A DNA stretch of 63,722 bases, filler included, from Candidatus Rokuibacteriota bacterium (GCA_031406795.1; 5 parts of 5 records of this genome joined end to end with filler, not necessarily neighbours in it), one strand, 5' to 3'; counted from the first letter of the whole stretch, positions 27,494-60,490 are shown. The notes: generated by a model not told the origin, from the letters alone. Program-made: numbers and translations.

Positions 27494-27593
27494 NNNNNNN
27501 NNNNNNNNNNNNNNNNNNNNNNNNNNNNNNNNNNNNNTTAATTAATTAANNNNNNNNNNNNNNNNNNNNNNNNNNNNNNNNNNNNNNNNNNNN
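27494..27593. other. Artificial contig linker
   Basis: N-run-TTAATTAATTAA-N-run (six-frame stop spacer). Confidence 0.98.
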
Positions 27594-28764: not shown

Positions 28765-31023
28765 TCAATTCCCTCCGAAGAGCACGGGCGACTTGGCCGT
28801 CGATCGGTAGCGGCCAATCACCTCGCGCACCTCGTCGAGTCCCGCTCGGCCCGCCCCGCCCTTGATAACCGACTGGATCGATGCCTGCCTCGCGACGAAA
28901 TCAATCTCCTCAACGTGCATCGGCCAGCGCTCGACAAGCGTGACGAGTTCATCTTCGCGGATCCCATCGTTCCCCAGGCGCTCCTCCCAGCGACGAATTT
29001 GCACGTGCTCCGGCGGGTGCTCGAGCTTGAAGTGCAGGTTGAATTCGACGGGAAGCGGCTGCGGCTTGAGGGGATGCGTCACCATGCAGAAGAGCCCGGT
29101 GTGCGTGCGCAGTCTGGCTTTCAGGTCGTCGAGTTCAAAGTTCTTTTTGCCGTCGGATTCACCTTCGAGAAAGCGCCCGAGGTCGCCGCTGAAATCCATG
29201 AGCAGGGTCATGGCGTTCGCGCCGAGCGTCCTGGAGAACGCGTACTCCATCGGGGAGAGCTTCCGCTGTGTCAGCGGGTCAATCAGCCGGTCCGCCTCGG
29301 TTGACGACTGGAGCCGAGCGTAGATGAACGAGCGCACCTCGAGGCCGCACTCCCGTGCCAAAGCCTTTGCCGCAAGTTGTCCGGTGCCGAAGAACGGGGT
29401 GCTGATCAGAACGGTGAGGCCGAATCCTTCCCCCTTGAGTTGCTTCCAGGCGCGCGCTGCGCCCTGGAGGCCGTCCCGCTCCCGGTTACGAAGAAATAGA
29501 TCCGCGATGGTTCCTTGCGGTGCCGCGTATCGTTCGCAGATTCTCTCTTCGTCCGACGGCACGGGTTGCTGCAGGTCGACCGCCCGCACGAGTTGCTCCC
29601 GCGTAACACAGATTTTCCCATCCTCCCGCCTTGGCGACCGCGTCATCGCGAGCAGCATGCAGTTCTTGATCAGGCCGCCGGAGAGCTGGTAGCGGTCGGC
29701 GATCTTCGCGAGGTCGAGATCCGGGGCCAGTTCGAGCCTCTCAGGGAGAAGCGACTGCCACATGCGCAGCCGCGTGTCTGCATCCGGGATCGGGAATGCG
29801 ACCTTCATCGCGAAGCGCCGCTCCATCGCCGGGTCCAGGTCGACGGGCTTGTTGGTGGCCATGATGACGACGCATCGTGACTTCTCCAGCTCAATCAGCA
29901 GCGCCCTCCCCAGTCGCGAGTCGTTCGTGAACAGGTCGTCGCACTCGTCGAAGAGCACGATACCGCCCAGGGACTCCGCCTCGCGGAAGACCCTTGCCAG
30001 GACATCCTCCGGGTTGCCCCACTTGTCGAAGACGCTCACGGCGAGAGAGACGATCCGCCGGTCGAAGCGCAAGGCGAGCGCGCGAGCCATCATCGTCTTG
30101 CCGGTCCCCGGCGGCCCGTGGAAGAGCAGCGCCAGCCCGGTGCCGTAGCCGAAGAAGTCGTCCAGCTCGACGAGCCGCCCTGCGGCGCGATCCTCGAGAA
30201 AATTGCCAACGCAGGCGGCAACCTCCTCTTTCAGCCCATCCGGCAGGACGACCTGATCAAGGCTCACGGAACTGCGCTCCCACCGGATGAACCGCATCGA
30301 CGAACGATAGAGGTACCGGTCCCCGAGGATCTGGCGCACGAACCGCTCCTGCAATCTGATCTTCGTCCCCAGCAGATTCGTCGACTCCCCCACCCCGTCG
30401 ATCTGGAGGATCTCCTCCCCGATCAACGGCCTTTCCGTGCTGAAGTGGCGACGCGCCTCGACTTGTTCAAGGAAATCACGGCAGGCGAGCGACAGGATCG
30501 TCCCGATCAGCATGCCGTTGTGCAGGTCGTTCGTGTGCACGCCGACCTGCTCTGGCTCGAGGCGGCACCGCCTGAACGTCTCCATGAACCGCGGCGACGT
30601 GAACTGCATGAGCAGAAGCAGGAGCACCGCGCGCTCGACGGGACCGAGCCGCCGTTGTTGGCAAAATGCCTGAAAGAGCAGGTCGACGCCGTCCCGCTCT
30701 GAAGCCGCTTCCCGCAGGCGGTTCACGGCGGCCGTTTCCTCGAGCAGGACCTGCACACGTGCGACATCATTTCCGGCCGCCAGGAACGGAAAGAGCGCAC
30801 GAAATTCCGGCGACGACTCGTGACCGCCCGCAACCTCCCGCGGCAGATTCCGCAAATACCCGACGGCGAGCATCAGCGTGGCCTCTCGTTCCAGCGCCTC
30901 AAGGTGGTCGAGATTGTCGCGGAATGGTGCGTTTGACTCGCTACCCACCCACTCCAGATGTCCGAGCACGCCTTCGTCCTCGACACCTACTGCAACCCGC
31001 TGTTGCGCTGGCGCGGCGCTCAT
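28765..31023 (-). CDS. Tandem AAA+ ATPase (one intact, one degenerate module)
   Basis: GPPGTGKT, LFDECD, IMATN, AMERRF; second module lacks Walker A Lys; ATGA overlap with clpP stop. Confidence 0.85.
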   Translation of the reverse strand: MSAAPAQQRVAVGVEDEGVLGHLEWVGSESNAPFRDNLDHLEALEREATLMLAVGYLRNLPREVAGGHESSPEFRALFPFLAAGNDVARVQVLLEETAAVNRLREAASERDGVDLLFQAFCQQRRLGPVERAVLLLLLMQFTSPRFMETFRRCRLEPEQVGVHTNDLHNGMLIGTILSLACRDFLEQVEARRHFSTERPLIGEEILQIDGVGESTNLLGTKIRLQERFVRQILGDRYLYRSSMRFIRWERSSVSLDQVVLPDGLKEEVAACVGNFLEDRAAGRLVELDDFFGYGTGLALLFHGPPGTGKTMMARALALRFDRRIVSLAVSVFDKWGNPEDVLARVFREAESLGGIVLFDECDDLFTNDSRLGRALLIELEKSRCVVIMATNKPVDLDPAMERRFAMKVAFPIPDADTRLRMWQSLLPERLELAPDLDLAKIADRYQLSGGLIKNCMLLAMTRSPRREDGKICVTREQLVRAVDLQQPVPSDEERICERYAAPQGTIADLFLRNRERDGLQGAARAWKQLKGEGFGLTVLISTPFFGTGQLAAKALARECGLEVRSFIYARLQSSTEADRLIDPLTQRKLSPMEYAFSRTLGANAMTLLMDFSGDLGRFLEGESDGKKNFELDDLKARLRTHTGLFCMVTHPLKPQPLPVEFNLHFKLEHPPEHVQIRRWEERLGNDGIREDELVTLVERWPMHVEEIDFVARQASIQSVIKGGAGRAGLDEVREVIGRYRSTAKSPVLFGGN

Positions 31024-31598
31024 GCCCCACCCCGCTTCCGCACCGGCTCAACGCGGTCCGCGATGCCATGCTGGATCGCCTCCTCGGGCGTCAGCCAGGT
31101 GTCCACGTCGCGCAGCAGATACTTCTCCAGTTCGGCCTTGTCCTTGATGTTCGAGTACGCCAGGTAGTGCTGCAGGATGCGCTCGTGCTCCATATCCTCC
31201 GCCTTGCGGCCGGCAATCAACTGGCTGTGACTGCCGACGCTGAACGCCGAGAAACGGTGCGACAGGATCGAGGTGCGCGGCGTGATCACCCGACGGCCTT
31301 TCTCGCCGGTCATGAAGACCAGCAGCGCCATCGACGCAATCATTCCGATGCCGGTGGTGTATATCGGGATCCGCGACCACTCCATGATGTCGATGATCGA
31401 AAACCCCGCCGGGCAGGAACCGCCCGGGGAGTTGATCACCATCTGGATCTGGTTGACCTCCGCCTTGATGTTGTACTCGATGATCTCCTTGCAGACACTC
31501 TCCGCCATCCCGCCGTCGATCGCGCCGGAGATGTAGATGATCCCGAAGTCCTTCAGCCCCTGCTCTTTGCCCTTCTCCCGCTTCTCGCTCTCTGCCAT
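31020..31598 (-). CDS. clpP: ClpP-family serine protease paralog
   Basis: INSPGG, IASMA (Ser), SHRF (His), DTWLTPEEAIQHGIAD (Asp). Confidence 0.85.
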   Translation of the reverse strand: MAESEKREKGKEQGLKDFGIIYISGAIDGGMAESVCKEIIEYNIKAEVNQIQMVINSPGGSCPAGFSIIDIMEWSRIPIYTTGIGMIASMALLVFMTGEKGRRVITPRTSILSHRFSAFSVGSHSQLIAGRKAEDMEHERILQHYLAYSNIKDKAELEKYLLRDVDTWLTPEEAIQHGIADRVEPVRKRGGA

Positions 31599-31626
31599 GG
31601 CCCCTCCCTGGGTTGGTGAGTGACGC

Positions 31627-31660
31627 ATCATTCACTGGAGGGGTGACAAAACTGGACAAA
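31627..31660 (-). promoter_or_regulatory. Island promoter motif 1 (clpP-AAA)
   Basis: TGTCCAGTTTTGTCAC-N10-AATGAT. Confidence 0.65.
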
Positions 31661-31705
31661 GAAAGATCACCTGGATCATCGGCGATCCCGGGATCGGAAA
31701 CGGCC

Positions 31706-31800
31706 TTAGTCCTCGGCCCGTGCAAAGAAAGCAGACAGCCTGCGGTTCATTTCTGCCTTCATCTGCCGGATCGTCCCCTCCCTGGTTTGGTTCCTGGCAA
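31706..31800 (-). pseudogene. Deleted relic of the 34768..35370 gene
   Basis: Leader CCAAACCAGGGGAGG fused to GTIRQMKAEMNRRL.. C-terminus. Confidence 0.8.
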
Positions 31801-31801
31801 C

Positions 31802-31835
31802 CAGATACCGCGGAGGTGTGACAGATTTGGACAAA
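31802..31835 (-). promoter_or_regulatory. Island promoter motif 2
   Basis: TGTCCAAATCTGTCAC-N10-TATCTG. Confidence 0.65.
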
Positions 31836-31869
31836 GTTAGGCCATGGTTCGCGGCAAAATTTGCATTCA

Positions 31870-31894
31870 TATTATGACCATAGTATTATGACCA
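31870..31894 (+). promoter_or_regulatory. TA operator, direct repeat
   Basis: TATTATGACCA twice upstream of the antitoxin. Confidence 0.55.
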
Positions 31895-31915
31895 CAGACA
31901 GAACAGGAGGAAGCA

Positions 31916-32146
31916 ATGGTTCAGACGGTATCTAAATCCAAATTCAAGCCCCGTGCGCTGGAGTATTTCCGGAAGATCCAGGAAACCGGCGAGGAACTCG
32001 TCCTTACCGACCATGGCAAGCCGGTGTTGAAGATCACCGCCTTCAAGCCCGACCCCGCCGCATCGCTGAAATCGCTCAGGAACACCGTGGTGAAGTTCAC
32101 AGATCCCCTGCGGCCGACCGGTGAAGACTGGGATGCGTTGAAATGA
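31916..32146 (+). CDS. Phd/YefM-family antitoxin
   Basis: VSKSKFKPRALEYFR..GEELVLTDHGKPV. Confidence 0.85.
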   Translation: MVQTVSKSKFKPRALEYFRKIQETGEELVLTDHGKPVLKITAFKPDPAASLKSLRNTVVKFTDPLRPTGEDWDALK

Positions 32147-32538
32147 TCGTTCTGGATACGCACGTCTGGCTCTGGTGGGTCAGCAACCCGGAGCTTCTCT
32201 CCGCCGCGGCGCGGAAGACGATCGACCACGAGATGGTGGACGGAGAGATCGGTATTTCGTCCATCAGCGCCTGGGAAGTTGCGATCCTGGTGAAGAAGGG
32301 GCGTCTCGACCTCACGATGTCCGCCGGGGATTGGATCGCACGGTCCGAGGCGCTCCCCTTCCTCCGGTTCATCCCCGTGGATAACCGGATCGCCCTCAAG
32401 TCCGCGAACCTCCCCGGCCAGCTGCACGACGACCCCGCCGATCGCATCATCATCGCGACGACGATCACGCTCGGCGGCATTCTGGTCACGAAGGACGATA
32501 AGATCAGGAAATACCCTCACGTGCGTACGACCTGGTAG
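32143..32538 (+). CDS. PIN-domain (VapC) toxin
   Basis: IVLDTHVWLW, SAWEV, HDDPADRIIIATT, LVTKD. Confidence 0.9.
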   Translation: MIVLDTHVWLWWVSNPELLSAAARKTIDHEMVDGEIGISSISAWEVAILVKKGRLDLTMSAGDWIARSEALPFLRFIPVDNRIALKSANLPGQLHDDPADRIIIATTITLGGILVTKDDKIRKYPHVRTTW

Positions 32539-32609
32539 CTGCAGGTAGCTGATACCTGAGTTGGATGATACGTCCAGACACAACCGGCAAGAACAAATGG
32601 TCGTGATAG

Positions 32610-32641
32610 TGTCCGGAATTGTCACGACCTGGAATTACCTT
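32610..32641 (+). promoter_or_regulatory. Island promoter motif 3
   Basis: TGTCCGGAATTGTCAC-N10-TACCTT. Confidence 0.7.
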
Positions 32642-32754
32642 CCTTACCACACGCGGTTGGAATGCAGGGTGCGGCCTGGGGTAGCAGGGGCAATCTTGGC
32701 AACGATGATCTCGGGGCGAGAGCGGATAATCGACTTTTCGGAGGGGCACGGAAG

Positions 32755-33813
32755 ATGCTATACCAACTCGACCTCACCAGCGCAGCCGCAAGCAAAAAGG
32801 TCAAGCTAGAGCAACCTGCAGACTTGGGAATCCTTGAGAAGTATGTCGAGGATTTCTTTGCCACGCACATCCACGAGTTGATTCCCGAGGATCAGCTCAT
32901 GATAATCGCTCAAGAACGCAGCAGACAGGAAGAAGCCGACCTGCTTGCTCTCGACCGTAAAGGCGTGCTTTTCATTTTCGAACTCAAGCGATGGCAATCC
33001 AATCCAGAGAATCTCCTTCAGGTTATGCGATATGGACAGATCTTTGGCCGTTATAGCTATGAGGACCTTCAGGACCTGGCGCAGCGTCATAATAGACTGG
33101 AAGGCAGTTTGGCCAAAAAACACCGGGAGTATTTTGAATTAGACGAAGTTTTGCCGCAAACAGCATTCAATGCTGACCAAGTCTTTGTCGTAGTCACAAA
33201 CGGCGTCGACAAGGATACCTTAGGGGCGATTCAGTATTGGAAGAAGAAGAACGTCCGTATCGACTTCCTCACGTACAAGCTCTATTCCCTGGCTGGGAAA
33301 CCTCATTTGTACTACGACACCTATAACCCTGAGTTTGATGTCATCCAGGAGACAAATCCTGGCGTCTGCGTCGTCAATACGAACGTGAGTTATATGGAAG
33401 ATGCATGGCGGGATATGATGACTGCGCAGAAGGCGGCAGCCTATTACGACCGAAAGTATGCCGTTACCGGCATTCAGAAGGGCTTTACGGTGTATCTTTA
33501 TCACACGGGCGTCGGGGTCATAGCCAAAGGGAAGGCCAAAGGCCCCTATCGCAAAACAGATTTCGATGGCGACAAGGACGCTGAGTATTTCGTCCCGCTT
33601 ACTCTCGATTGGGCACTGAGCGATCCAGATAATTGGAAATACGCCATCACCGCGCGCGAAATCAACAAGAGAATGAATAGCGGTTACCGATTCAGGCAAA
33701 CTGTTTTCGGCATCGCGCCAGAAATGGCTGAAGCTATTGACTCTCTTTGGGAGCAGCACCAGAAGGAACTGGAATCCGCCTCTCACTCGAAGGCCATCCT
33801 CACTGAAATCTAA
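32755..33813 (+). CDS. NucS/Mrr-like PD-(D/E)xK endonuclease with PUA/EVE-like C-terminal domain
   Basis: LEKYVED, ADLLALD..IFELKR, QVMRY; C-terminal IQKGFTVYLYHTGVGVIAKG; AT-richer than flanks. Confidence 0.65.
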   Translation: MLYQLDLTSAAASKKVKLEQPADLGILEKYVEDFFATHIHELIPEDQLMIIAQERSRQEEADLLALDRKGVLFIFELKRWQSNPENLLQVMRYGQIFGRYSYEDLQDLAQRHNRLEGSLAKKHREYFELDEVLPQTAFNADQVFVVVTNGVDKDTLGAIQYWKKKNVRIDFLTYKLYSLAGKPHLYYDTYNPEFDVIQETNPGVCVVNTNVSYMEDAWRDMMTAQKAAAYYDRKYAVTGIQKGFTVYLYHTGVGVIAKGKAKGPYRKTDFDGDKDAEYFVPLTLDWALSDPDNWKYAITAREINKRMNSGYRFRQTVFGIAPEMAEAIDSLWEQHQKELESASHSKAILTEI

Positions 33814-33863
33814 TTGCCCTGCTGATGCGAATCCCAGCAGAGCGGTGCGCTATCGAGGGCAGA

Positions 33864-34107
33864 TCACCAGGTCGTGGAAACGGGGTAGCGCGAGATCTCC
33901 GGATCGGGTATCAGAATGGTGAGACCGTGCGCCGCCGCCTGACAGACCAGCATGCGGCCGAACGGATCCCGGTGGTAGTCCGGCAGCTTCGAGAGCTGAA
34001 GCACCGCCACTCTCCGCCATCCCGCCGTCGATGGCGCCGGAGATGTAGAGGATCCCGAAGTTCTTCAGCCCCTGCTCTTTGCCCTTCTGCTTCTCGCTCT
34101 CTGCCAT
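33864..34107 (-). pseudogene. Chimeric relic: clpP 5' end (34008-34107) fused to PIN toxin 3' end (33864-34007)
   Basis: Near-identical to 31496-31598 and 38082-38226 respectively. Confidence 0.85.
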
Positions 34108-34135
34108 GGCCCCGCCCTGGGTTGTTGTGTGCCTC

Positions 34136-34169
34136 ATCATTCACCCGGGACATGACAGAATCGGACAAA
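34136..34169 (-). promoter_or_regulatory. Island promoter motif 4
   Basis: TGTCCGATTCTGTCAT-N10-AATGAT. Confidence 0.6.
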
Positions 34170-34207
34170 CGAAGATCCCGCAGCCCTTCGTTCCCGTGGC
34201 GGTGACG

Positions 34208-34759
34208 TCAGTCTTCTTCGGGGAATACAAGATACCGCGGCGGGACCATTCGAGTGAGCCAGACACCGTTTTCGGATCTACAGAACATGTGCCCATCCTT
34301 ATTCATGGCCAACGCATCGATGGCAAGAACTACCGGCTTCCCGTGACGCTTGCCGACTTCGACCGCGGTTGATTCCGACGTAGAAAGATGGACGTACTGA
34401 CGAGAACCAGGAATCAGCCCCTTGGATCGAATCGAGCGAACGAAGCGCGTGGCCGTCCCGTGGAACAGAACTGCGGGCGGATCAGCCGGTGGTAGATGCA
34501 GATCCACCTCGATGGAGTGACCCTGATTCGCCCGGATGAAGCTGCCATCACCCTTCAATGCAAATCGCTGCTTTTCGCTCGTGCGTGCCACTTCAGCGAT
34601 GAGTCCCCTTGAAAGTGATCGGCCGTGGGCAGCCGCGAGGCGCACCAAATCATCAATATTCGCCCATCCTTCGTTGTCGAGCTGCAGGCCGATGACATCC
34701 GGGCGGTGCCGCAGAACGTGGCTCAGAAACTTGCTGATCGACTTGAGACGACTTGGCAT
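34208..34759 (-). CDS. kptA: RNA 2'-phosphotransferase (Tpt1/KptA)
   Basis: SKFLSHVLRHRP, KQRF, IRANQGHS, LFHGT, RQYVHLS, SENGVWL. Confidence 0.92.
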   Translation of the reverse strand: MPSRLKSISKFLSHVLRHRPDVIGLQLDNEGWANIDDLVRLAAAHGRSLSRGLIAEVARTSEKQRFALKGDGSFIRANQGHSIEVDLHLPPADPPAVLFHGTATRFVRSIRSKGLIPGSRQYVHLSTSESTAVEVGKRHGKPVVLAIDALAMNKDGHMFCRSENGVWLTRMVPPRYLVFPEED

Positions 34760-34767
34760 TACTTTGA

Positions 34768-35370
34768 CTATTTCTGCCCTGCCTGGACGAAGTAGGCCGG
34801 CAGTCTGCGGTTCATCTCTGCTTTCATCTGCCGAATCGTCCCCACGATCGCGGTGACCGCTGACGGCTCGCGCATGTCGATCTGCCTGGCGAATTTCCAA
34901 CTCGGCAGCGGAAGGTCCGTGCGGTCGTCGATGATGAAGCACGGCGTGATGTCGCCGGCATCCTTGTAGGCGGCCGCATAGTCCCGCCACATCTCCTCCC
35001 CGACCGAGTTCCGATCGAGAATCTGGATGAAGCACCCGTAAGCAAAGATGTCCGGATCGCCATCCGCACCCAAAATGATCTCGCAGTCGGTCTCCCGGCC
35101 GCACGCCGCCAGGGCTGCAAAGAGACCGCGGTACTTCTCCTCGCCATCGAACTGGCAGAAGATCGTCCGCCGCCACGGCAACTCGGAGATCGGCAGCGGA
35201 ACCCCATTCCCGGATGGGACGGCTGGATGCGCTTCAGCGGGTCCCGCTGCTGCGAGCGTTGCCATCCCGGCGGCCGCCACCGCCAGGTTCTTGATGAACG
35301 TTCGTCTCAGCTCTGTTCCCGATTCATCCCTGCCGCCTTTTCCATCAAGATGTTTCACTCTCACTGTCAT
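34768..35370 (-). CDS. Hypothetical protein with twin-arginine-like signal
   Basis: LRRTFIKNLAVAAAGMATLAAAGPAEA; RBS GGAGGAG. Confidence 0.7.
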   Translation of the reverse strand: MTVRVKHLDGKGGRDESGTELRRTFIKNLAVAAAGMATLAAAGPAEAHPAVPSGNGVPLPISELPWRRTIFCQFDGEEKYRGLFAALAACGRETDCEIILGADGDPDIFAYGCFIQILDRNSVGEEMWRDYAAAYKDAGDITPCFIIDDRTDLPLPSWKFARQIDMREPSAVTAIVGTIRQMKAEMNRRLPAYFVQAGQK

Positions 35371-35399
35371 AGCTCCTCCCTGGTTTGGTGCCTGGCATC

Positions 35400-35433
35400 C
35401 TGATACCGCTGATGTGTGACAGATTCAGACAAA
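35400..35433 (-). promoter_or_regulatory. Island promoter motif 5
   Basis: TGTCTGAATCTGTCAC-N10-TATCAG. Confidence 0.65.
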
Positions 35434-35469
35434 GTGGAGATCACAGCGAAGCCGATGCAGGTTCCCGAT

Positions 35470-35501
35470 TGTCTAAATATGTCACAGGTCGCCGCTACCC
35501 T
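35470..35501 (+). promoter_or_regulatory. Island promoter motif 6 (ftsZ-like)
   Basis: TGTCTAAATATGTCAC-N10-TACCCT. Confidence 0.7.
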
Positions 35502-35529
35502 CCATCGCAACTCCTTGGGAGGGGAAAGC

Positions 35530-36603
35530 ATGGATAACCTTCTGGACCGAAGGAAGTTCCTTCACCGTTCACTAACATATTGTTCGGGGCTGGCTGTTCT
35601 CATGGCCATGCCGTCCTTGGCAGGGGGACGAAAGATCTCTGCCTTTGGAGAAGTTCCAGTCGCAGTCAACGAATTCGAGATTACCGGCGCAGACATACGG
35701 GTCATCGGAGTCGGTTGCGGCGGATGCATTGCCCTGAATTCGATGATCGGCACCGGGATACCTGGGGTGAAGTACATCGCCGTCAACAGAGATGAGCAGG
35801 CGCTCGGTTCTTGCCTGGCAACAAACAAGCTCAATATCGGTTCAATCGCCAACGATGCCACCAACGCCGCTACCCAGCACGAATTCGGGCGTAAGGCAGC
35901 CGAAGCTCACTCCACGGTTATCGCCAAGGCAATACATGGGACTGACCTCCTCTTCATCGTCGCTGGGCTTGGTGGAAGCACCGGGACAGGGGCTGCACCG
36001 GTAATAGCCAAGATCGCCAAGGATCAGGGCATCCTCACCGCAGGCGTCGTGACGACGCCATTTCCTTTCGAAGGCGGTCGCCGGGCGAAGCAAGCGGCAG
36101 ATAGTCTTCGTATACTTGAAGATACCGCGAATTCGACAATCGTTGTGCCCAACACGGATCTTCTCACGATGATTGACCGCAAAGCGACGCTTCTTGATGC
36201 GTTCCGAATGGCGGATGACTCATTGTGCCAGGCGGTTGCCGGCATCTCCACGCTCTACACAATACCTGGTCTTTCCGATCCTGATTTCTACGACGTTCGA
36301 GCGGTGATAAATTTAATGCGGAGCGCCAGAGTGCGCCACGGCGTCGGCCAAGGCGTGAACCGTGCTGTGGCGGCCATGCAGCAGGCCATTAACTCTCCCC
36401 TCCTTGGCGCTGAAACCGTCGAAAGCGCAGCCGGTGTGATCCTCAATATCTCGTGCGGGCCGGATATCGGCCAGAACGAGGCCTTGAACGGAATTAGGCA
36501 CATCCAAGAGTTTGTCAGGGACTTTCTTCCGATTGTGTATGGGTTCAAGATATTTCCCGAACAGGCTGGCACAGTTGTGGCAACCATTATCGCTGGCCGA
36601 TAA
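35530..36603 (+). CDS. ftsZ: Divergent FtsZ paralog with Tat-like leader and no C-terminal tail
   Basis: IRVIGVGCGG, AGLGGSTGTGAAPVIA, TTPFPFEGGRR, DAFRMAD, PGLSDPDFYDV; leader DRRKFLH. Confidence 0.85.
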   Translation: MDNLLDRRKFLHRSLTYCSGLAVLMAMPSLAGGRKISAFGEVPVAVNEFEITGADIRVIGVGCGGCIALNSMIGTGIPGVKYIAVNRDEQALGSCLATNKLNIGSIANDATNAATQHEFGRKAAEAHSTVIAKAIHGTDLLFIVAGLGGSTGTGAAPVIAKIAKDQGILTAGVVTTPFPFEGGRRAKQAADSLRILEDTANSTIVVPNTDLLTMIDRKATLLDAFRMADDSLCQAVAGISTLYTIPGLSDPDFYDVRAVINLMRSARVRHGVGQGVNRAVAAMQQAINSPLLGAETVESAAGVILNISCGPDIGQNEALNGIRHIQEFVRDFLPIVYGFKIFPEQAGTVVATIIAGR

Positions 36604-36694
36604 TGGAGCATCGAGGTGTGGCACGGCAGGAATTTATCCTTTCACCTGAGACCGCTGGGGCGGCCGTCCTCAGCAACGGATGGAGGTGCTTTGC

Positions 36695-36985
36695 GTGGCG
36701 AGGTTCGAAAACCACTGCGCCGAGAGTTCGAGGATGTTCGGCAGCCCTTTTGCCGAAGTCCATCGCTGGCTCGACGAGTTCGCCGGATCGCCCGAACACG
36801 GCATGCGCCACCGCAGGAAGCGCCACCACCTGGCGGGCATCGAGGAAGTGGCAAAGCGCTTCGGTGAAGATGCGCGCGCCGCAGCGAGGCAGCACGTGAT
36901 CACGGATCTGCAGGAAGAGGGTTGGACGGAGCGAGACCGGTTCCCGGTCGACGAGCGCGACTACGTGAAGATGGGGTTCTTTTAG
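36695..36985 (+). CDS. Small His-rich hypothetical protein (DUF6915-like)
   Basis: VHRWLDE..HRRKRHHLAGIEE..QHVITDL; GGAGG before GTG at 36695. Confidence 0.6.
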   Translation: MARFENHCAESSRMFGSPFAEVHRWLDEFAGSPEHGMRHRRKRHHLAGIEEVAKRFGEDARAAARQHVITDLQEEGWTERDRFPVDERDYVKMGFF

Positions 36986-37014
36986 AAACACGGGAAATGA
37001 CGGCCGAGGCCTCG

Positions 37015-37046
37015 TGTCAGGAAATGTCACAGGTCGGCGCTATTCT
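37015..37046 (+). promoter_or_regulatory. Island promoter motif 7 (dnaA-like)
   Basis: TGTCAGGAAATGTCAC-N10-TATTCT. Confidence 0.7.
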
Positions 37047-37074
37047 TGTCGCTCCAATTAGGGAGGGTTAGAGC

Positions 37075-37974
37075 ATGAGCTGCACCTTTGATCGGCGGAT
37101 GTTCCTGAAGAGGTTCGGGGCGCTTGGGGCCGGACTCGGCGCTTTCATTGCCGAGCCATCCCACGCGTGGAGTCGAATTACTGGCTTGGCGCAGAGTGCA
37201 CCGGACACCTGCGATACCGCGCGCATCTCAACATCGGCGGGAGGCAGTATCCGATCGTCGAATTTGATGAGGAACATGACATTCGACAGCTTCGTTCCTG
37301 GCGAGAGTAATCGACTCGCATTTGAGGCAGCAATGGCCGTTGCCGACCGCCCGGCGCCCCGCTGGAACCCGTTGGTCATCTATGGTGGAGTTGGGCTCGG
37401 CAAGACGCACCTGCTTCATGCCATTGGAAACCGCTTCCTCGAGCGCAATCCCGGTTCGGGAGTCATGTACTTCTCCTCTGAAACCTTTATTAACGATTTG
37501 ATCAACTCGATCCGCTATGATCGCATGGGCTCGTTCCGAAGCCGGTACCGGCAATTAGACCTGCTCCTCGTCGACGACATCCAGTTCATCGCGGGTAAAG
37601 AGAAGACCCAGGAGGAGTTCTTCCACACCTTCAACTCAGTCCACGAGTTGCACAAGCAACTCGTGCTCACCAGCAGCAAGATGCCGCGTAAGATCCCCGA
37701 TCTCGACGAATGCCTTCGCTCCCGGTTTCATGGCGGCCTCACCGTTTCAATCAACGCTCCTGAAAATGATCTACGGCTGGCCATCGTCCACCAAAAGGCA
37801 GAATATTGTGGCGCCAGATTTCCAGAGAATGTTAAGCGCTATATTGCGGCGCGGCCGAAAGCACAATGCATTAGGTCCTTGGAAGGGGATGTCATACGTC
37901 TAAACGCATATTCATGTCTGGACGAGAAGAAAATCGACCTGGCATATGCGCGAGAAATCCTCGAGAGAATGTAA
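37075..37974 (+). CDS. DnaA domain-III-only paralog with Tat-like leader
   Basis: TFDSFVPGESN, NPLVIYGGVGLGKTHLLHAIGN, LLVDDIQFIAGKEKTQEEFFHTFN, LRSRF, IRSLEG; no domain I or IV; leader DRRMFLK. Confidence 0.85.
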   Translation: MSCTFDRRMFLKRFGALGAGLGAFIAEPSHAWSRITGLAQSAPDTCDTARISTSAGGSIRSSNLMRNMTFDSFVPGESNRLAFEAAMAVADRPAPRWNPLVIYGGVGLGKTHLLHAIGNRFLERNPGSGVMYFSSETFINDLINSIRYDRMGSFRSRYRQLDLLLVDDIQFIAGKEKTQEEFFHTFNSVHELHKQLVLTSSKMPRKIPDLDECLRSRFHGGLTVSINAPENDLRLAIVHQKAEYCGARFPENVKRYIAARPKAQCIRSLEGDVIRLNAYSCLDEKKIDLAYAREILERM

Positions 37975-38081
37975 CACCCGGCGGGTCACGAACCCGAGGG
38001 GAGGAGCAAAGAAAATGCTTTATCAACTCGACCCACAGTTGACGCGAATCCCCAGCAGGACGGAACTCTATCTGGGTCAGC

Positions 38082-38468
38082 TCACCAGGCCGTGGCAACG
38101 GGGTAGCGAGAGATCTCCGGGTCGGGTGTCAGAATGGTGAGACCGTGGGCCGCCGCCTGGCAGACCAGCATGCGGTCGAACGGGTCCCGGTGGTAGTCCG
38201 GCAACTTCGAGAGCTGAAGCACCGCGGTCTCGTCGAGGGCGAGCGCCTCGATGCGGTGCCGCCGGCGCTGCTCCGGCACGAACTCATGCGGAGGCCGGGG
38301 AAGCGGCAGGCGCCCGAGCGCGTGCTTGACGATGATCTCCCAGGTGGAGACGGAACTCAGAAAGACCTCGTTCGACGCATCGGAGAACAGATCTCTCGCA
38401 ACCCCCGAGAGCGCCGCATCCCCGGAGGCGATCCAGAGGAAGGCGCAGGTGTCGAGCAGCAGCCTCAC
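38082..38468 (-). CDS. PIN-domain (VapC) toxin
   Basis: LLLDTCAFLW, STWEI, HRDPFDRMLVCQA. Confidence 0.9.
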   Translation of the reverse strand: MRLLLDTCAFLWIASGDAALSGVARDLFSDASNEVFLSSVSTWEIIVKHALGRLPLPRPPHEFVPEQRRRHRIEALALDETAVLQLSKLPDYHRDPFDRMLVCQAAAHGLTILTPDPEISRYPVATAW

Positions 38469-38710
38469 CCGCGCTCCCCGCGGAAACCGGCGAGCGTCTC
38501 TTCCGGCAACGGCTCGAAGAAACTCGCCGGAACCGTGAAGGTGCCCGCGGCAAGCCCGATCGGGCGCCGCTTGGCGTTATGCCGGGGAAGCAGCCGTATC
38601 TCGGCGATCGGCGCATTGCGTTTGCACAGGATGATGCGCTCGTCGCCCTTCAATCGCGCAAGGTACGCGGAGAGGTGCGTCTTTGCGTCGTGCATATTTA
38701 CCTTAATCAT
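38465..38710 (-). CDS. Phd/YefM-family antitoxin
   Basis: MIKVNMHDAKTHLS..RPIGLA..FFEPLP; TTGACA-17-CACTAT promoter just upstream. Confidence 0.85.
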   Translation of the reverse strand: MIKVNMHDAKTHLSAYLARLKGDERIILCKRNAPIAEIRLLPRHNAKRRPIGLAAGTFTVPASFFEPLPEETLAGFRGERG

Positions 38711-38813
38711 GGTTCGATAGTGAACTAACAACATGGTCGTGTCAACCACCAGTGACGGGTTTCTGCCTGACGGCCCGGCAGCGTGAGATGCTTGACCGGG
38801 TATAATCCCGGCG

Positions 38814-39527
38814 ATGCTCACCCTGCAGAAACCGACAATCAGCACTCCGCGCGACTGCGAGTACCTTCCCGGCCGCCTAGCGCGCACGGAATACTTTCTC
38901 GCGCAGGAAGTGCTCCCAGCGGAACTCGACATGCTGCTGGAGTCGGGATGGCGCAAGTTCGGGTATCTCTTCTTCAGGCCGGCGTGCGGCGACTGCAGGG
39001 CGTGCGTGCCGCTGCGCATACCAGTCGCGAATTTCTTGCCCTCCAAGAGCCAGCGCCGCACCATCCGCAAGGGCGCCGCCATGGCAGTGACCTTCAAACG
39101 ACTCGAATTGAACGCGGAGGTCTTCGCTGTCTTCAGCGACCACGCGAAATCACGATTCAACCAGACCCTCGCGGCGAACGAATTCGTCCAGAGTTTTTAC
39201 CTCACCGCCTGCCCGGGTCTCCAGTCGGAGTATCGGCTCGACGATGCGTTGGTGGCGGCCGGATTCCTCGACCGATCGGAACGCGGGCTGAGCAGCGTCT
39301 ATTTCGCCTTCCGAGCCACTGCAGCCAGCTACCGCCCAGGCGTGCTCAGTGTGCTTGCCGAGATCGAATACGCCGGCAGCTGGGGACTGGAATACTGCTA
39401 CCTGGGTTATTGGATAGCCGCGAACCCGCGCATGGCCTACAAGGCCGCGTTCCGCCCGCACCAGCTGTACGACTGGGAGAGCAGGGTCTGGCGCGATGCG
39501 GCTTCCTGCTGCGGCCCGCCGGCTTGA
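38814..39527 (+). CDS. Arginyl-tRNA-protein transferase family (Ate/Bpt)
   Basis: CEYLP, GWRKFG, RPACGDCRAC, SKSQRR, LSSVY, YLGYWI, MAYK. Confidence 0.85.
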   Translation: MLTLQKPTISTPRDCEYLPGRLARTEYFLAQEVLPAELDMLLESGWRKFGYLFFRPACGDCRACVPLRIPVANFLPSKSQRRTIRKGAAMAVTFKRLELNAEVFAVFSDHAKSRFNQTLAANEFVQSFYLTACPGLQSEYRLDDALVAAGFLDRSERGLSSVYFAFRATAASYRPGVLSVLAEIEYAGSWGLEYCYLGYWIAANPRMAYKAAFRPHQLYDWESRVWRDAASCCGPPA

Positions 39528-39779: not shown

Positions 39780-40916
39780 ATGAACAAAGTCCGCTTCCTG
39801 CACACCTCCGACTGGCAGCTCGGCATGCGCCGTCACTTCCTGGGCGACGAGGCGCTCCCGCGGTACATGCAGGCGCGCGTCGACGCGGTCCGCGCACTGG
39901 CCCGCATCGCCGCCGAGGAGCGCTGCGAGCTGGTCGTCGTGGCCGGCGACGGGTTCGAGTCGAATCATGTCGACCGGCTGACGGTCGGCCGCGCTCTCGG
40001 TGCGCTCAAGGAGATCCCCTGTCCCGTCTACGTGCTCCCCGGGAACCACGACGCGTTCGACGCCGCCGGAGTCTACCGCTCCCCGGAGTTTCGCCACGGG
40101 AGGGCGGGGCACATCCACATCCTGGAGTCGAACACTCCCGTGCCAGTACGTCCCGGTCTCGAGATCGTCGGGGTGCCGTGGATGACCAAGCACCCGCGTC
40201 GCGACCTCGTGGCGGAGGCCCTGAAGAACTTGGAGCCCTTCCCGGGGGGCCACCGACTCTGCGTGGCGCACGGGATCATCGAGGGGCTCTCCCCCGACCA
40301 GACTGACCCCGCCGTCATCTCCCGGCGGCAGGCCGAGGCGGCGCTGGCCGACGGGAGGATCCACTTCCTCGCCCTCGGCGACCGCCACTCGACGACCGAA
40401 GTCGCGCCGCGCATCTGGTACTCGGGCACGCCGGAGACCACCGACTTCGGCGAACTCGATCCCGGGAACGTTCTCGTCGTCGAACTCGACGGCGACACGT
40501 GCCGAGTCGAGCGGCGCCGCACCGGCACCTGGCGCTTCCTGGACATCGCCCACGACGTGACGTCGGCCGAGGAGGTCCAGGCGCTGGCAGCGAAGCTGGA
40601 CGCTCTCCCCGACAAGGACCGCACCATCGTCAAGCTCAGCCTGCGCGGCACGCTGAATCTGCGCGCGAAGGGGATGCTCGACGATAGCCTCGAGCGATTC
40701 CGGCACCTCTTCGCCGCGGTCGAGCTCTGGGAGCGGCACACCGACATCCGCGTCCTTCCCGACGGCTTCGATTTTGGCGACCTCGGGCTCTCGGGGTTCG
40801 CGAAGCAGGCCCTGGACACCCTCTCCGTCGAAGCCGGCGGCTCCAGCCCCGACACCGGCACGGCACGCGACGCCCTCGCGCTCCTCTACCGGCTCTCCGG
40901 GGGAGGCCGCCAATGA
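39780..40916 (+). CDS. Mre11/SbcD-like metallophosphoesterase nuclease
   Basis: HTSDWQLG, AGDGFE, PGNHD, AHG, ALGDRH, YSGTPE. Confidence 0.9.
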   Translation: MNKVRFLHTSDWQLGMRRHFLGDEALPRYMQARVDAVRALARIAAEERCELVVVAGDGFESNHVDRLTVGRALGALKEIPCPVYVLPGNHDAFDAAGVYRSPEFRHGRAGHIHILESNTPVPVRPGLEIVGVPWMTKHPRRDLVAEALKNLEPFPGGHRLCVAHGIIEGLSPDQTDPAVISRRQAEAALADGRIHFLALGDRHSTTEVAPRIWYSGTPETTDFGELDPGNVLVVELDGDTCRVERRRTGTWRFLDIAHDVTSAEEVQALAAKLDALPDKDRTIVKLSLRGTLNLRAKGMLDDSLERFRHLFAAVELWERHTDIRVLPDGFDFGDLGLSGFAKQALDTLSVEAGGSSPDTGTARDALALLYRLSGGGRQ

Positions 40917-43381
40917 GAATCCTCCGGCTCCGGATCAAGGATTACCGCGGAGTCGCCGACCGCACGCTCGATTTCGATCCCGCCGGGGTCACCGTCGTTG
41001 AGGGGCCGAACGAGAGCGGGAAGTCCTCCCTCGCCGAGGCGATCGACCTGCTCTTCGAGCACCCCGACTCCAGCCGCAAGCAGGCGGTGCTGCAGACCAA
41101 GCCCGTCGACAGGGACGCGGGGCCTGAAATCGAGGCCGAGATCACCGCCGGCCCCTACCATTTCGTCTATCGGAAGCGCTTCATCCGCAAGCCGGAGACG
41201 ATCCTCGAGGTGAAGTCTCCACGAAAGGAGCACGCCACGGGCCGGGAAGCGCACGACCGCGTGCGCGCCATCCTCGCGGAGACGGTCGACGGCGACCTCT
41301 GGAAGGCGCTGCGCGTCAACCAGGGCGACCTCCTGGGCCGGGTTCCCGTCGGCAAGATCGCCTCCCTGGGTAACGCCCTGGACCGCGCCGCCGGCAAGGA
41401 GACTGCCGGGGAGCGGGAGCAGACGCTCTTCGAGGCGGTGGTGGCGGAGTACCGCAGGTATTTCACCGAGAGCGGGCTGGAAAACAAGGAGCTGCGGGCG
41501 TCCGCCGAGCGGATCGCTGAACTCGAAGACCTCGTCGCGAAGACCAGCGCCGATCTCAAGACCATGCAGCAGGACGTGGACAGGAGCGAAGCCATCGCCA
41601 TTGCGATTCCCGAGCTGAAGCGCGTGTCCGCCGAGGCGGGCGAGCTCGCCGTCCGACGCGAAGCGGAGCGCCTCGAGGTCGACAAGCGGGAGGCCGAGGT
41701 CCAGCGGCTGGAACTCGCGGAACAGAATGCCCGCATGGCCGAAACCGCCGCCGTCCAGCACGCGGCCGACCGTGAGTCGCTCGTCCGAAAGGTGGAGGAG
41801 GTACAGCAGCAGCGGCGCCGGCTCGAGGCGGAAGCCGCCACGGAGCAACCCGCGCTAGTTGATGCGAAAGCGCGATGCGAAGCTGCCACCGGGAGCCTGG
41901 CGACAGGCGAAGCGGCGGTCGGCGAGGCCGAGGCCGCGCTTGCGCTGCGCGAGCGGGACTTCGAGTACCAGCGTGCCAGGCTCGATCTCGAACAGCTCCG
42001 CGAACGGCGGGCACGGATCGAGGAGGCCCGGCAGCGCGCCGCGTCGGCCAGGGAGTTCCTCGATCGCACCCGGATCACGGACGAGATCGTGCGGCGCATC
42101 CGCGAGTGCCACCTCGACCTGGAGAAGGCCCAGGCGCTCCTGGATGCCGGCGGCCCCCGCCTGCGCGTGACGGCTCTCTCGCCCTTCGCGGCCGAGATCG
42201 ACGGGGTCCCCGAGAGCCTGGAGGAGCACCAGGTCCTCGAGCGCACCGTGCCCGGCCAGACGGTCCTGCGGATACCCGGCACGGCCGAGATCGTCGTGTC
42301 GGCGGGCACGAGCGTCGAGAACCTCCTCGCCGCGCGAGACAAGGCCGGCCGCGCGCAGGAGGAAGCGCTCGGCCGCGCCGGCGTGAGGGACATGGAGGCC
42401 GCCGAGCGCGAGAACGAGCGCCGCCGGGAGTCCGAGCGGGTGGCCGAGGCGAGCGAAGTCTCCGTCAGGGTGGACCTCCGCGACCTCACCCTGGACGCGA
42501 TGACGGAGAAGATCATCAGCCTCGCCTGGGCGGAAGACTACCCAGCCCAGCGCCCGGCATCCCCCCCACTCATGCCGGACCTCGACTCGGCGGAAGTTGC
42601 GCGCAGGGAGGCCAAGGAGACCCTCGGCCGAACCCAGGCGGACCGTGACTGCGCGCGGGAGGAAGTCCTGGCCGCCGAGAAGCGGGGCAACCACCTGGCG
42701 AGCCGCCTGCAGGAGAAGACGCTCGAACTTCGGCTCTCCGCGCTATCGGAGAAGCAGGCGACCGCCGAACTCGCTGCGACGCGGGAACAGAAGCCCGACG
42801 ATGATCTCGCGACGGCCTTGAACCTGGCCCGGGAGCGCGCACGGACCTCGGCAACCAGCCTCCAGGAGGCCAGGGCCGCGTTGAAGTCCGCGAACCCGGA
42901 GCTGGTGCGCCAGCTGGCGTCCAACGCGAAGAAGGCGGAGCAGGCGGCCGCGCAGCGCCTGCGCGCAGCCGAGGACGAGTTGCGCGACGTCGCCGCCCGC
43001 CTCGAGCTGCAAGGTGAACGCGGCCTTTTCGATGCCCTCGAGGACGCGCAGTCGCGCCTGGAGCACGCTCGACGGGACCACCGCAGCCTCACGGCGCGCG
43101 CGGCAGCGGCGCGTCTGCTCTTCGTGAGCTTTCGGGATGCGCGGGATGCATCCCGCCGCGCCTACCAGGCGCCGCTGCGAGACAAGATCGTCTCCCTGGG
43201 GCGTTTTGTCTTCGACGAAACGTTCGGGGTCGAACTCGACGAGGACCTCGCCATCGGCACACGGACCCTGCAGGGGGTGACCCTTCCCTTCGACAGCCTC
43301 AGCGTCGGTGCCCAAGAGCAGCTCTCCCTCATCGCCCGCCTCGCCTGCGCCCTCCTCGTCAGTCAGGACGACGGCGTCCCC
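40913..43381 (+). CDS. Rad50/SbcC-like coiled-coil ATPase (3'-truncated by contig end)
   Basis: GPNESGKSS Walker A, long coiled coil, LSVGAQEQL signature. Confidence 0.88.
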
Positions 43382-43481
43382 NNNNNNNNNNNNNNNNNNN
43401 NNNNNNNNNNNNNNNNNNNNNNNNNTTAATTAATTAANNNNNNNNNNNNNNNNNNNNNNNNNNNNNNNNNNNNNNNNNNNN
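43382..43481. other. Artificial contig linker
   Basis: N-run-TTAATTAATTAA-N-run. Confidence 0.98.
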
Positions 43482-48080: not shown

Positions 48081-48205
48081 CGCGCGGGTCCTCTGCAGCA
48101 TCACGGTAGGGATTCTCGTGGCGGGGCCGGACTTTGTCAAGGCGGCCCGGGCCCGGCCCCCGTCGGGCGTGGCGCAATGATATAGTTGCCCGGGAGAACC
48201 GGGCG

Positions 48206-59618: not shown

Positions 59619-60490
59619 GTAGAGTAGAACCTCAGTGCCGGACTGCAGGCGCGGGGAGTAGCTGTTGCCGGCGACTTTAGCGCTTTGCCGGTGCCTCAAT
59701 CCTCGCCATGCCCGTTCCCTTGGCCCCCTCGTCGAACCGGACATCGGGTTTTCCCCGGTACGGCTCTCCGACGACCTTCTCCGCGAGCTTATCAGCAATC
59801 GTTGTCATTGAAGCACCCGATCCGCCGAGCTGGTACAGACCCAGACGGACAAGCACATTGCCGTGGACTCTCCTCGCGCCCCTCGCTTGATCGTTGTACT
59901 TCCGCTTCAGGAATCTCCGGACCCGCTCGCGGATAGAGCTGTTGAGTTTCAAGAAGCGCTTGCGCTCCGGCTGCACCGTCGTGTGGTAGTTGTTCCAGCC
60001 GCGCAGGACGGGGTTCAACTCCTGGATCAACTCTTCCAGCGAGGTGCCATACCGACGCCCAATCTTCTCTTTGACCTTCTGCTTGATCCGCTGCACCGAA
60101 CGGTCGGACGGCCAGATCCGGCATGAGAACTTCACTCGCGGGTTCTGCTTGCGCACCGGTTGCAGTCGGAAATGTACCCCCAGAAAGTCGAACCCCTCCG
60201 CGGCAGCCACTATCCGGGTCTTCTCCGGATGCATCGTCAGCCCGAGGCGGTTCAACATCCAGCGCACCTTCTCCAGCACCTGTTCGCCGTTGCGCCACAG
60301 CATGATCGCGATATCGTCCGCAAACCTCACCAGCGTCCCGGGAATCTTGGCGATCTGGAACATCTTGTCGAATGAGTGCAGGTAGATGTTCGCCAGTAGC
60401 GGCGAGATCACCCCACCTTGCGGCGTCCCCAACTCGCCCGACGGAACAGCTACGCCACCGTCCATCACCCCGGCCTTGAGCCAGCCTTTG
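59619..60490 (-). mobile_element. Group II intron, 3' portion (5' part lost at contig end)
   Basis: Domain V GAGCCGTACCGGGGAAAACCCGATGTCCGGTTC, long domain VI, 3' end CTACTCTAC at 59619. Confidence 0.9.
59677..60490 (-). CDS. ltrA: Group II intron reverse transcriptase/maturase (5'-partial)
   Basis: GTPQGGVISPLLANIYL, RFADD, GFDFLG, LNPVLRGWNNY. Confidence 0.9.

Follow-up and report, generated by a model that had tools for sequence, protein, structure and literature searches.

Tat-type leaders on truncated FtsZ and DnaA paralogs in an accessory island: candidate stress-induced copies of cell-cycle proteins

Introduction

FtsZ and DnaA are, by textbook, cytoplasmic proteins. Why, then, would a bacterium keep additional copies of both behind leaders of the type that directs proteins to twin-arginine translocation (Tat)? 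The question is raised by three genes at positions 34768-37974 of a window of 63,722 nucleotides (nt), the whole stretch of DNA that was analyzed, which consists of five records of a Candidatus Rokuibacteriota genome joined with filler; the source is a sediment bacterium, and all coordinates are those of the whole joined window. An earlier note on this DNA had seen in the cluster a candidate cell-cycle-arrest or effector system, whose decoy-like paralogs might tether or export native FtsZ and DnaA. In this work, we followed up that proposal computationally. The reading that we favor, with a probability of about 0.35, is that the paralogs would be induced under stress, act as dominant-negative or decoy versions of FtsZ and DnaA, and be cleared or gated by Tat export. 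The earlier note knew of no described system with such an architecture, and our full-text literature search found none either, supplementary domain lists, which may bear on novelty, being outside its scope.

Results

Three neighboring genes begin with Tat-type leaders

As described earlier, three intact open reading frames (ORFs) within 3.2 kb start with RR-x-F-(L/I) leaders. They encode a protein of 200 amino acids (aa) on the minus strand (34768..35370), whose leader (residues ~20-47, nt 35230-35370) is followed by a 145-aa domain; a 357-aa FtsZ paralog on the plus strand (35530..36603), with its leader in residues 1-33 (nt 35530-35628) ahead of the GTPase and C-terminal subdomains; and a 299-aa DnaA paralog on the plus strand (37075..37974), with its leader in residues 1-33 (nt 37075-37173) ahead of a linker and AAA+ domain III only. 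The Tat consensus is (S/T)-R-R-x-F-L-K near the N-terminus, and the cores RRTFIK, RRKFLH and RRMFLK, in the same order, follow this pattern. All three leaders have an uncharged run of at least 12 residues and then a small-x-small site (AEA, SLA and SHA, respectively). A loose RR-leader rule flagged five of the 55 ORFs of the window, namely these three genes, a LysM/SLT murein enzyme and a doubtful 112-aa ORF. When N-termini of 60 aa were scored with the curated Tat model TIGR01409 (cut-off 16.7 bits), the 200-aa protein reached 21.4 bits (17.8 bits at full length), the DnaA-like protein 16.8 bits and the relative of the latter in locus L002 17.6 bits. A lipobox in the FtsZ-like leader was considered and rejected, as the residue preceding the Cys is Tyr. 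No tat genes were found among the window ORFs scanned.

The earlier note had asked whether homologs keep the leaders, and they do, both in the FtsZ-like relatives P0003 and P0017 and in the DnaA-like relative P0122. The leader cores of relatives read RRKFLQ and RRRFLQ, and SRRNFLK in P0323, with cleavage-type sites AMA and SLA. Ratios of nonsynonymous to synonymous substitution rates (dN/dS) were 0.28-0.51 for the leaders where computable and 0.10-0.42 for the mature parts, with some linkers near 1, all from small codon numbers; these values suggest that the leaders are under purifying selection. The 20 close relatives of the 200-aa protein, itself included, comprise 12 with an RR leader, four without and four that are N-terminally incomplete. 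The leaderless ones (P0245-P0248) have their own N-terminus, the leader being missing in frame; they share with P0242-P0244 the first residues and the mature domain, and the signal peptide looks like a removable module.

The FtsZ and DnaA copies are truncated paralogs on long branches

The FtsZ-like ORF spans 35416-36603(+), and its likely start is the ATG at 35530, behind the Shine-Dalgarno site GGGAGGGG; an identical 357-aa product is present in the protein database. Both FtsZ domains are recognized by Pfam (PF00091, 113.6 bits; PF12327, 51.3 bits), and the score on TIGR00065 is 256.2 bits, below the equivalog cut-off of 295.2. The protein has neither linker nor C-terminal peptide, whereas its canonical relatives continue to a DIPTFLRRQ-type end. 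Among the best 120 FtsZ matches, only P0003 (51% identity) and P0017 (50%) cover the whole query; by our own count their leaders match at about 23 of the 33 residues, and both proteins share its final ...AGR. The closest canonical FtsZs among these 120 show 53-55% identity across 87-89% of the query; those with a name belong to Methylomirabilia. The nucleotide and interface loops have changed in different ways. The T1 loop of the window copy contains two Cys and lacks the Asn, the GAGANP-type motif of T3 is gone and one Gly of T4 is replaced by Ser, while the T7 Asp pair is kept; P0003 and P0017 have lost that pair, and their T1, T3 and T4 are closer to canonical than those of the window copy. 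T1, T3 and T4 are degenerate in three further FtsZ-like proteins (P0311, P0323 and P0324), which are fused to the 145-aa domain. In the tree, the window protein, P0003 and P0017 form a clade (support 100/100) that branches, with a stem of ~1.05, from within Methylomirabilia-like FtsZ (95/98, 96/99), a quick tree being in agreement, and the fused proteins stand on a separate, very long branch. Constraining all six FtsZ-like proteins together costs 14.7 log-likelihood units (approximately unbiased test, p 0.074), and a single origin is thus not rejected.

The DnaA-like protein is recognized by PF00308 (212.7 bits), with no match to PF11638 or PF08299 (domains I and IV), both present in canonical relatives, and it scores 307.5 bits on TIGR00362, below the cut-off of 343.9. 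According to the alignment it starts at the border of domains II and III and stops at the end of domain III, and it retains Walker A, Walker B, the SRF arginine and the sensor II arginine. It has one close relative, P0122 (76% identity); canonical DnaAs share ~57-62% identity with it. In the tree, a stem of 1.45 leads to the pair, which branches within 11 canonical DnaAs (support 96). Because the FtsZ-like and DnaA-like proteins nest in canonical sets on long stems, both are fast-evolving offshoots of the housekeeping genes of their own, Methylomirabilia-like lineage. The alignments confirm that the paralogs lack their effector ends, as the earlier note had it, the truncations falling exactly at domain borders. 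Its further statement that they keep their oligomerization core stood only in part, as several interface and nucleotide loops are changed.

The three genes share a promoter motif of PafBC-type layout

The earlier note had assigned a copy of a common promoter motif to each leader gene, and the motif TGTC-N6-TGTCA indeed precedes all three start codons by ~46 nt. It has seven matches in the window, all within 31644-37029, where 0.23 are expected, and none of 100 shuffles reached seven. The copies precede a gene for a ClpP-like protease, the remnant of a second 200-aa gene, a 383-aa gene, a ClpP-like fragment, and the 200-aa, FtsZ-like and DnaA-like genes; the distance from motif to ATG is also ~46 nt for the ClpP-like gene and longer for the 383-aa gene. 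Two copies lie in the divergent promoter region between the 200-aa gene (35417-35431, minus strand) and the FtsZ-like gene (35470-35484, plus strand), with TA at N10 after GTCAn, and the copy of the DnaA-like gene (37015..37029, plus strand) has an N10 hexamer of the TA-N3-T type. Nine more copies occur in five of six related metagenome loci; over the 16 sites, the position ten bases after GTCAn reads TA in 13 and TA-N3-T in six. The motif in its double form is not present in the more distant loci L090-L092.

PafBC is a WYL-family activator that senses single-stranded DNA. In mycobacteria it activates the DNA-damage response by replacing the contact at -35, according to the parts of the two reports that deal with this mechanism (PMC8635444; PMC6789036), and the consensus stated in the first of them is tGTCgg(N10)tA(N3)T. 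The island motif fits a promoter of this PafBC/WYL type, with a GTC element, N10 and a tA(N3)T -10 element and no -35 element, at the same spacing as in that consensus. Unlike the PafBC sites, it has a second TGTC half-site 10-11 nt upstream, and AC instead of gg after GTC; the setting differs as well, as the host is not an actinobacterium and no PafBC/WYL gene was seen in the window with tblastn. By analogy with PafBC-type promoters, the transcript may start roughly 25-30 nt before the ATG, and because of this distance the RR codons would lie inside the reading frame. Two other readings of the region were rejected: an anti-Shine-Dalgarno hairpin in the 46-nt spacer, because the PafBC-type layout puts the pairing partner upstream of the transcript start, and sigma-54 promoters at the TGGCA-like strings near 35390 and 36620, because of wrong spacing. 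HTH-WYL-WCX regulators stand beside distant family members of the 145-aa domain in loci L090, L091 and L108. Together with the promoter layout, they lend indirect support to a link with stress or cell-cycle control.

The 145-aa domain defines a wider family

The domain of the 200-aa protein belongs to no Pfam family, and a profile search of the Protein Data Bank (PDB) found nothing. A flavodoxin/receiver-like fold is predicted for it (AlphaFold2, predicted local distance difference test (pLDDT) 69), and the best VIA match of the model is to receiver-like domains (Z 9.8, root-mean-square deviation 2.8, 117 residues aligned). The fold seems generic because many receiver domains match, with Z from 9.8 down to 8.3. 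Foldseek gave no match for the model at E <= 0.001, and the rows of the ESM Atlas were weak (0.82 or lower), those of TIR domains (0.76-0.78) being leads only.

A profile of the leaderless part found at least 181 cluster representatives at E <= 0.001, 97 of them at E <= 1e-10, among the 1.84 billion searched. We assigned the best 150 of the 181 to leader classes by a rule of our own: 47 have an RR leader, 58 have no leader, 25 are fragments and 20 have another N-terminal extension or fusion. The association of Tat leader, FtsZ-like protein and 145-aa domain recurs in a distant lineage: P0323 starts with the SRRNFLK leader and continues with an FtsZ-like part (PF00091, 63.6 bits; PF12327, 60.4 bits) and then the 145-aa domain. 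P0311 is the same fusion of FtsZ-like part and domain without a leader, and P0324 is again this fusion, N-terminally incomplete. Further fusions join the domain to Endonuclease VII (P0262), DUF2779 (P0394), REase-ARP / PD-(D/E)XK (P0406) and TPR repeats (P0297). A scan with an alignment of the FtsZ fusions returned 80 loci, which we take for ordinary ftsZ loci because none of the 80 has the 145-aa domain; a profile search of genome contigs with the close-family alignment of the 200-aa protein gave no match. The domain is rare in sampled genomes, being found in three of 401 in one phylum and four of 401 in another. We take the 145-aa domain protein to be an adaptor or sensor common to this family of systems.

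In the related loci, the same genes come in other arrangements. In L002, a DUF6915 gene and a DnaA-like gene adjoin a gene that fuses the 145-aa domain to a ~210-aa DnaE-finger-like domain (1371-2444; PF17657, 28.1 bits, cut-off 22), and the reading frame of the DnaA-like copy breaks down beyond about residue 203, close to the end of the contig. In L003, the DnaE-finger-like domain is encoded divergently from the 145-aa gene (1117-1740) and scores 19.4 bits, below the cut-off. To judge by its profile match, this domain may represent one more truncated copy of a housekeeping protein, the third in this island family; it has no copy in the window, a pairwise PDB sequence search related it to DnaE with an E of 0.14 only, and its AlphaFold2 model (pLDDT 54.9, from an alignment of two sequences) is too poor for a fold search. 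In L001, a DUF6915 relative adjoins the 200-aa gene behind the motif. L004 and L005 have a ClpP-like gene behind the shared motif, and L004 also has a homolog of the 383-aa gene behind it and PIN pairs, one of them the counterpart of the pair found at 38082..38722 in the window. Further neighbors in sampled genomes are DUF2779, PDDEXK_4, PDDEXK_1/Cas4-like and UDG-like genes, Phd/PIN pairs, AIG2-like genes and an AAA ATPase. In the Nitrospirota-like L108 (1221-3945, 9535-10050), 5.6 kb separate a Tat-leader 145-aa gene from recA-recX, and both the WYL regulator and a Cas4-like nuclease lie no more than 8 kb from that 145-aa gene.

These fusions and neighborhoods bear on a rival explanation, according to which the truncated copies of FtsZ and DnaA, and the DnaE-finger copies of the relatives, would be decoys that soak up inhibitors made by phages or mobile elements. 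The resulting complex would be expelled through Tat or would alarm the island, and the alarm would turn on its nucleases, toxins or protease. The defense-island-like context (a gene resembling the PADLOC candidate PDC-S11, two PIN pairs and the AAA+/protease pair), the fusions of the 145-aa domain to Endonuclease VII, DUF2779 and REase/PD-(D/E)XK nucleases, and the presence of a third housekeeping fragment in L002 argue for it, and so does the use of division-protein homologs, predicted to be inactive, as effectors of conflict systems, as set out in the relevant part of PMC7159879. On the other hand, no relative of the 200-aa protein was found in the viral contig, phage and plasmid collections searched, no inhibitor or alarm link was identified, and no PADLOC model matched the 200-aa or the FtsZ-like protein, with only a weak P-loop match (mad8, 26.6 bits) obtained for the DnaA-like protein. 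The third fragment is itself uncertain, given the subthreshold score in L003 and the poor fold model. We regard this explanation as improbable.

The cluster is part of a mosaic island

The three genes are part of a low-G+C accessory island of ~28.7-38.7 kb with one promoter type common to its genes; the G+C content is 0.55-0.59 across 32-38 kb and 0.61-0.72 in the flanks. On the minus strand, the island starts with a 752-aa AAA+ ATPase with a winged-helix domain (28765..31023; PF22977, 82 bits; PF00004, 75.2 bits), which has a weak likeness to IetA/IteA in the core only (58.6 and 61.8 bits, cut-off 510), and with the ClpP-like gene (31020..31631; PF00574, 105.6 bits), whose motif lies at 31644-31658 and whose product scores under every NCBIfam ClpP equivalog cut-off. 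Because they overlap by 4 nt, the ClpP-like gene and the AAA+ gene downstream of it are probably one operon; the pair (28765-31631), behind the shared motif, may be the dedicated unfoldase-protease pair of the regulon. The remnant of a second copy of the 200-aa gene (31716..31837, minus strand) joins its last ~20 codons to the promoter (motif 31819-31833); these are repeats D5 and D6, with 81-89% identity to 34781-34843 and 35375-35435. On the plus strand follow a Phd/YefM antitoxin and PIN toxin pair (31916..32538; PF02604, PF01850) and the nuclease-like gene of 352-383 aa with its motif (32610..33813; motif 32610-32624), which matches PDC-S11 with 75.3 bits (E 1.1e-21) and has a weak NucS-like stretch. 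Fragments of a PIN gene and of the 5' end of a ClpP-like gene, the latter with a motif (34153-34167), occupy 33833..34177 on the minus strand (repeats D1-D4).

A gene for KptA/Tpt1, an NAD-dependent RNA 2'-phosphotransferase (34208..34753, minus strand; PF01885, 161.6 bits; NF002014, 248.6 bits, above the cut-off of 239), sits 14 nt downstream of the 200-aa gene, and the two apparently form an operon. A role of the 145-aa domain linked to NAD or ADP-ribose is hinted at, because KptA adjoins the 200-aa gene here and recurs in the distant genome of L090 (3525-4103), ~5.7 kb from a family member. Between the FtsZ-like and DnaA-like genes lies a 101-aa DUF6915 protein (36680..36985, plus strand; PF21866, 36.1 bits) with no motif of its own in the window; a PDB sequence search with it gave no match, and nothing on DUF6915 was found in the full-text literature search. 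A 5' remnant of the 383-aa gene (38000..38033; repeats D1 and D8) and a PIN toxin gene with an upstream antitoxin-like ORF (38082..38722, minus strand; PF01850) complete the island, in which no tRNA genes were found. Nor did we find secretion machinery or a delivery domain there, and the alternative raised in the earlier note, that the proteins are secreted effectors, gained no support.

The assembly was checked against contigs of sequencing runs that may be the window's own sample. One contig of run X1 (14,667 nt) spans 31000-37397 with no differences and another spans 37608-39000; the gap between them is a conserved stretch around the dnaA Walker B, where the depth climbs to 178-277. A contig of run X4 joins 31334 to 34135 and skips 2800 nt, so that the island varies between samples. 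The fragments at 31496-31837, 33833-34177 and 38000-38225 have 81-96% identity to intact copies and make the island a mosaic. Taken together, the mosaic fragments and the deletion contig suggest that cassettes behind the shared motif recombine. In such an often-recombining island, the paralogs might be non-functional leftovers of decaying duplicates, as the fragments and repeats, the X4 variant and the frame loss in L002 would allow. The intact frames with their Shine-Dalgarno sites and promoters, the low dN/dS of the mature parts and the preservation of the architecture in relatives at 50-76% identity all speak against decay, which we consider very unlikely.

Outside the island, the flank holds an arginyl/leucyl-tRNA protein transferase of the N-end rule (38814-39527), an SbcD/SbcC-like pair (39780-43429) whose large ATPase enters a masked N stretch, and a 1919-aa ORF (48134-53893) with UvrA_inter, UvrA DNA-binding and several ABC ATPase sites, about twice the usual length of UvrA. 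A second low-G+C stretch (0.56) contains a fragment of a group II intron reverse transcriptase/maturase (59677-60468) and an IS110-family transposase (61765-62889). The masked N runs are eight of 44 nt, paired at 27494, 43382, 58258 and 60491.

Discussion

In the reading that we favor, DNA damage or phage attack would switch the island on through a WYL activator sensing single-stranded DNA. The induced products would be those of the nuclease-like and toxin-antitoxin genes, the ClpP-like/AAA+ pair, KptA and the three proteins with Tat-type signal peptides. Since Tat substrates fold in the cytoplasm before export, the paralogs could meanwhile engage native FtsZ, native DnaA or their partners, and this engagement would pause division and replication initiation; the FtsZ-like copy is without the membrane-tether tail and the DnaA-like copy without the helicase-loading and DNA-binding domains. 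Tat export, driven by the proton-motive force, would then clear the paralogs, possibly together with bound cargo. Because export clears them, the block would be self-ending, and deeper when the membrane is de-energized.

In a more speculative form of this idea, which might be called "bait and eject" or an "export brake", the Tat-tagged copies of hub proteins (FtsZ, DnaA and the DnaE fragment of the relatives) would bind their native counterparts or phage inhibitors and carry them out through the Tat pore, so that, during a WYL-type single-stranded DNA alarm, division and replication would be stopped or protected by export itself, with the proton-motive force as its gate. We think this form possible and hold it with some doubt. 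A sister reading to it would have FtsZ redeployed as a periplasmic polymer.

Several observations weigh against stress-induced decoys cleared by Tat export. The degenerate T1 and T3 loops of the window protein and the degenerate T7 of P0003 and P0017 count against simple co-polymerization with native FtsZ and, because the degenerate loops differ between them, one conserved capping face is unlikely. Substitutions in the DnaA-like protein affect the Asp of the TSD (sensor-I) box and the first Arg of the ERL-SRF box, residues which we take to serve tight nucleotide binding and oligomer stability in E. coli. Two tblastn queries detected no WYL gene in the window; the 58 leaderless proteins among the best 150 family members show that the domain often does without a leader; and three Desulfobacterota-like genomes with a 145-aa gene have a single FtsZ and a single DnaA, with no extras. 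Besides, the proposal leaves unexplained why export and not proteolysis would be the off-switch. Finally, TIGR01409 matched neither the 60-aa N-terminus of the FtsZ-like protein nor the leaders of P0003, P0017 and P0323, and in full-length scoring, where the model is insensitive on long proteins, it matched eight of 49 RR-bearing family members, none of four FtsZ-like and none of two DnaA-like proteins. The Tat assignment of the FtsZ-like leader draws solely on motif anatomy and conservation, because the curated model gives no match.

The last point raises the alternative that the leaders are not working export signals. They could be membrane tethers, regulatory or degron-like peptides, or decayed signals, the proteins remaining in the cytoplasm; the failure of the FtsZ-like leaders in the curated model, the four leaderless proteins among the 20 close relatives of the 200-aa protein and the frequency of leaderless and fused forms would all be accounted for. 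It sits poorly with the conservation of the RR-x-F-L core, the h-region and the AxA-type site and with the signs of purifying selection on the leaders. In addition, the positive-inside rule, which is established knowledge, puts the domain outside if the segment inserts into the membrane. We judge this alternative to be rather improbable, a little more so than that of decoys for foreign inhibitors.

The degenerate loops point to a different alternative, namely that the FtsZ-like, DnaA-like and 145-aa proteins have acquired a new function after export: in the periplasm or at the outer face of the membrane, they would form scaffolds or polymers that need no nucleotide, or would block incoming DNA. 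The Tat pathway would then be used because such domains must fold before export. Periplasmic polymers do exist, CrvA of Vibrio being one. All three proteins have a full signal-peptide anatomy with small-x-small motifs and positive N-flanks, and the degeneration of loops that contact GTP (T1 and T3 in the window copy; T1, T3 and T4 in P0311, P0323 and P0324) would fit a compartment without GTP. The long stems of both paralogs, the recurrence of a Tat leader on so distant a fusion as P0323 and the RR leaders of 47 of the best 150 family representatives are also in agreement with it. Three facts oppose it: the DnaA-like protein retains all ATP-binding motifs after much divergence, the 145-aa domain is also fused to cytoplasmic DNA nucleases and is often leaderless, and there is no evident partner or substrate in the periplasm. 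We hold this alternative tentatively, yet consider it nearly as likely as the decoy reading that we favor.

How does the proposal of stress-induced FtsZ and DnaA decoys relate to known systems? FtsZm, FtsZ-like 1, CetZ and TubZ/PhuZ are likewise extra genes of the tubulin/FtsZ family, and FtsZm of magnetotactic bacteria also lacks the C-terminal tail; we know of no such paralog with a signal peptide. The idea of co-export is based on hitch-hiker export by Tat, in which a signal-bearing partner carries a folded signal-less one, as for the small and large subunits of hydrogenases and for DmsAB; the examples known so far involve redox enzymes and their assembly with cofactors. Hda/HdaA resembles the DnaA paralog in consisting of a DnaA-type AAA+ domain without domains I and IV, and Hda acts on DnaA. 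Unlike Hda, the window protein scores 307.5 bits as DnaA and 102.3 bits as Hda (TIGR03420, cut-off 194.8), and it has a Tat-type leader where Hda has its clamp-binding N-terminus.

SulA of E. coli, SidA of Caulobacter and YneA of Bacillus are damage-induced division inhibitors, and YneA is exported. Neither these nor DidA of Caulobacter is known to be a paralog of its own target, to carry a Tat signal or to be paired with a copy of a replication initiator; what they would have in common with the island is that stress-regulated proteins pause division. The case of DidA would also be alike in regulation, as its expression is driven by the WYL activator DriD, according to the abstract of that report. 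Division in Bacillus is also blocked by YpsA, a SLOG-fold protein, as an abstract states; the 145-aa domain could not be assigned to the SLOG domains. The nearest described idea is that of division-protein homologs as conflict-system effectors: in the MoxR-vWA and GTPase systems treated in part of the report by Kaur, Burroughs, Iyer and Aravind 2020 (PMC7159879), homologs of MinD/ParA, FtsK and, rarely, FtsZ/tubulin, predicted to be inactive, serve as effectors. Unlike those systems, the island has no MoxR, vWA or GTPase core. In the parts of that report covered by our search terms, among which DnaA was not included, there is no mention of Tat leaders or of the 145-aa domain. Islands in which copies of cell-cycle proteins serve in stress or conflict are known already; that the mechanism of this island is of a new kind is a possibility that we regard with reserve.

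If stress-induced decoys or an export-dependent brake or shield are at work, the island would represent a new way to halt or protect the cell cycle, in which the lifetime of a decoy paralog is set by Tat export; if the proteins act in the periplasm, the paralog would be the first FtsZ-family protein working outside the cytoplasm. By the match of its layout, the shared motif would also extend PafBC-type promoters beyond the actinobacteria. The 145-aa domain family has at least 181 cluster representatives, is linked to nucleases, KptA and WYL regulators, and may be one of the modules from which damage or defense islands are built. Export-tagged copies of cell-cycle proteins are kept in several lineages and are tied by gene fusion to this widespread uncharacterized domain.

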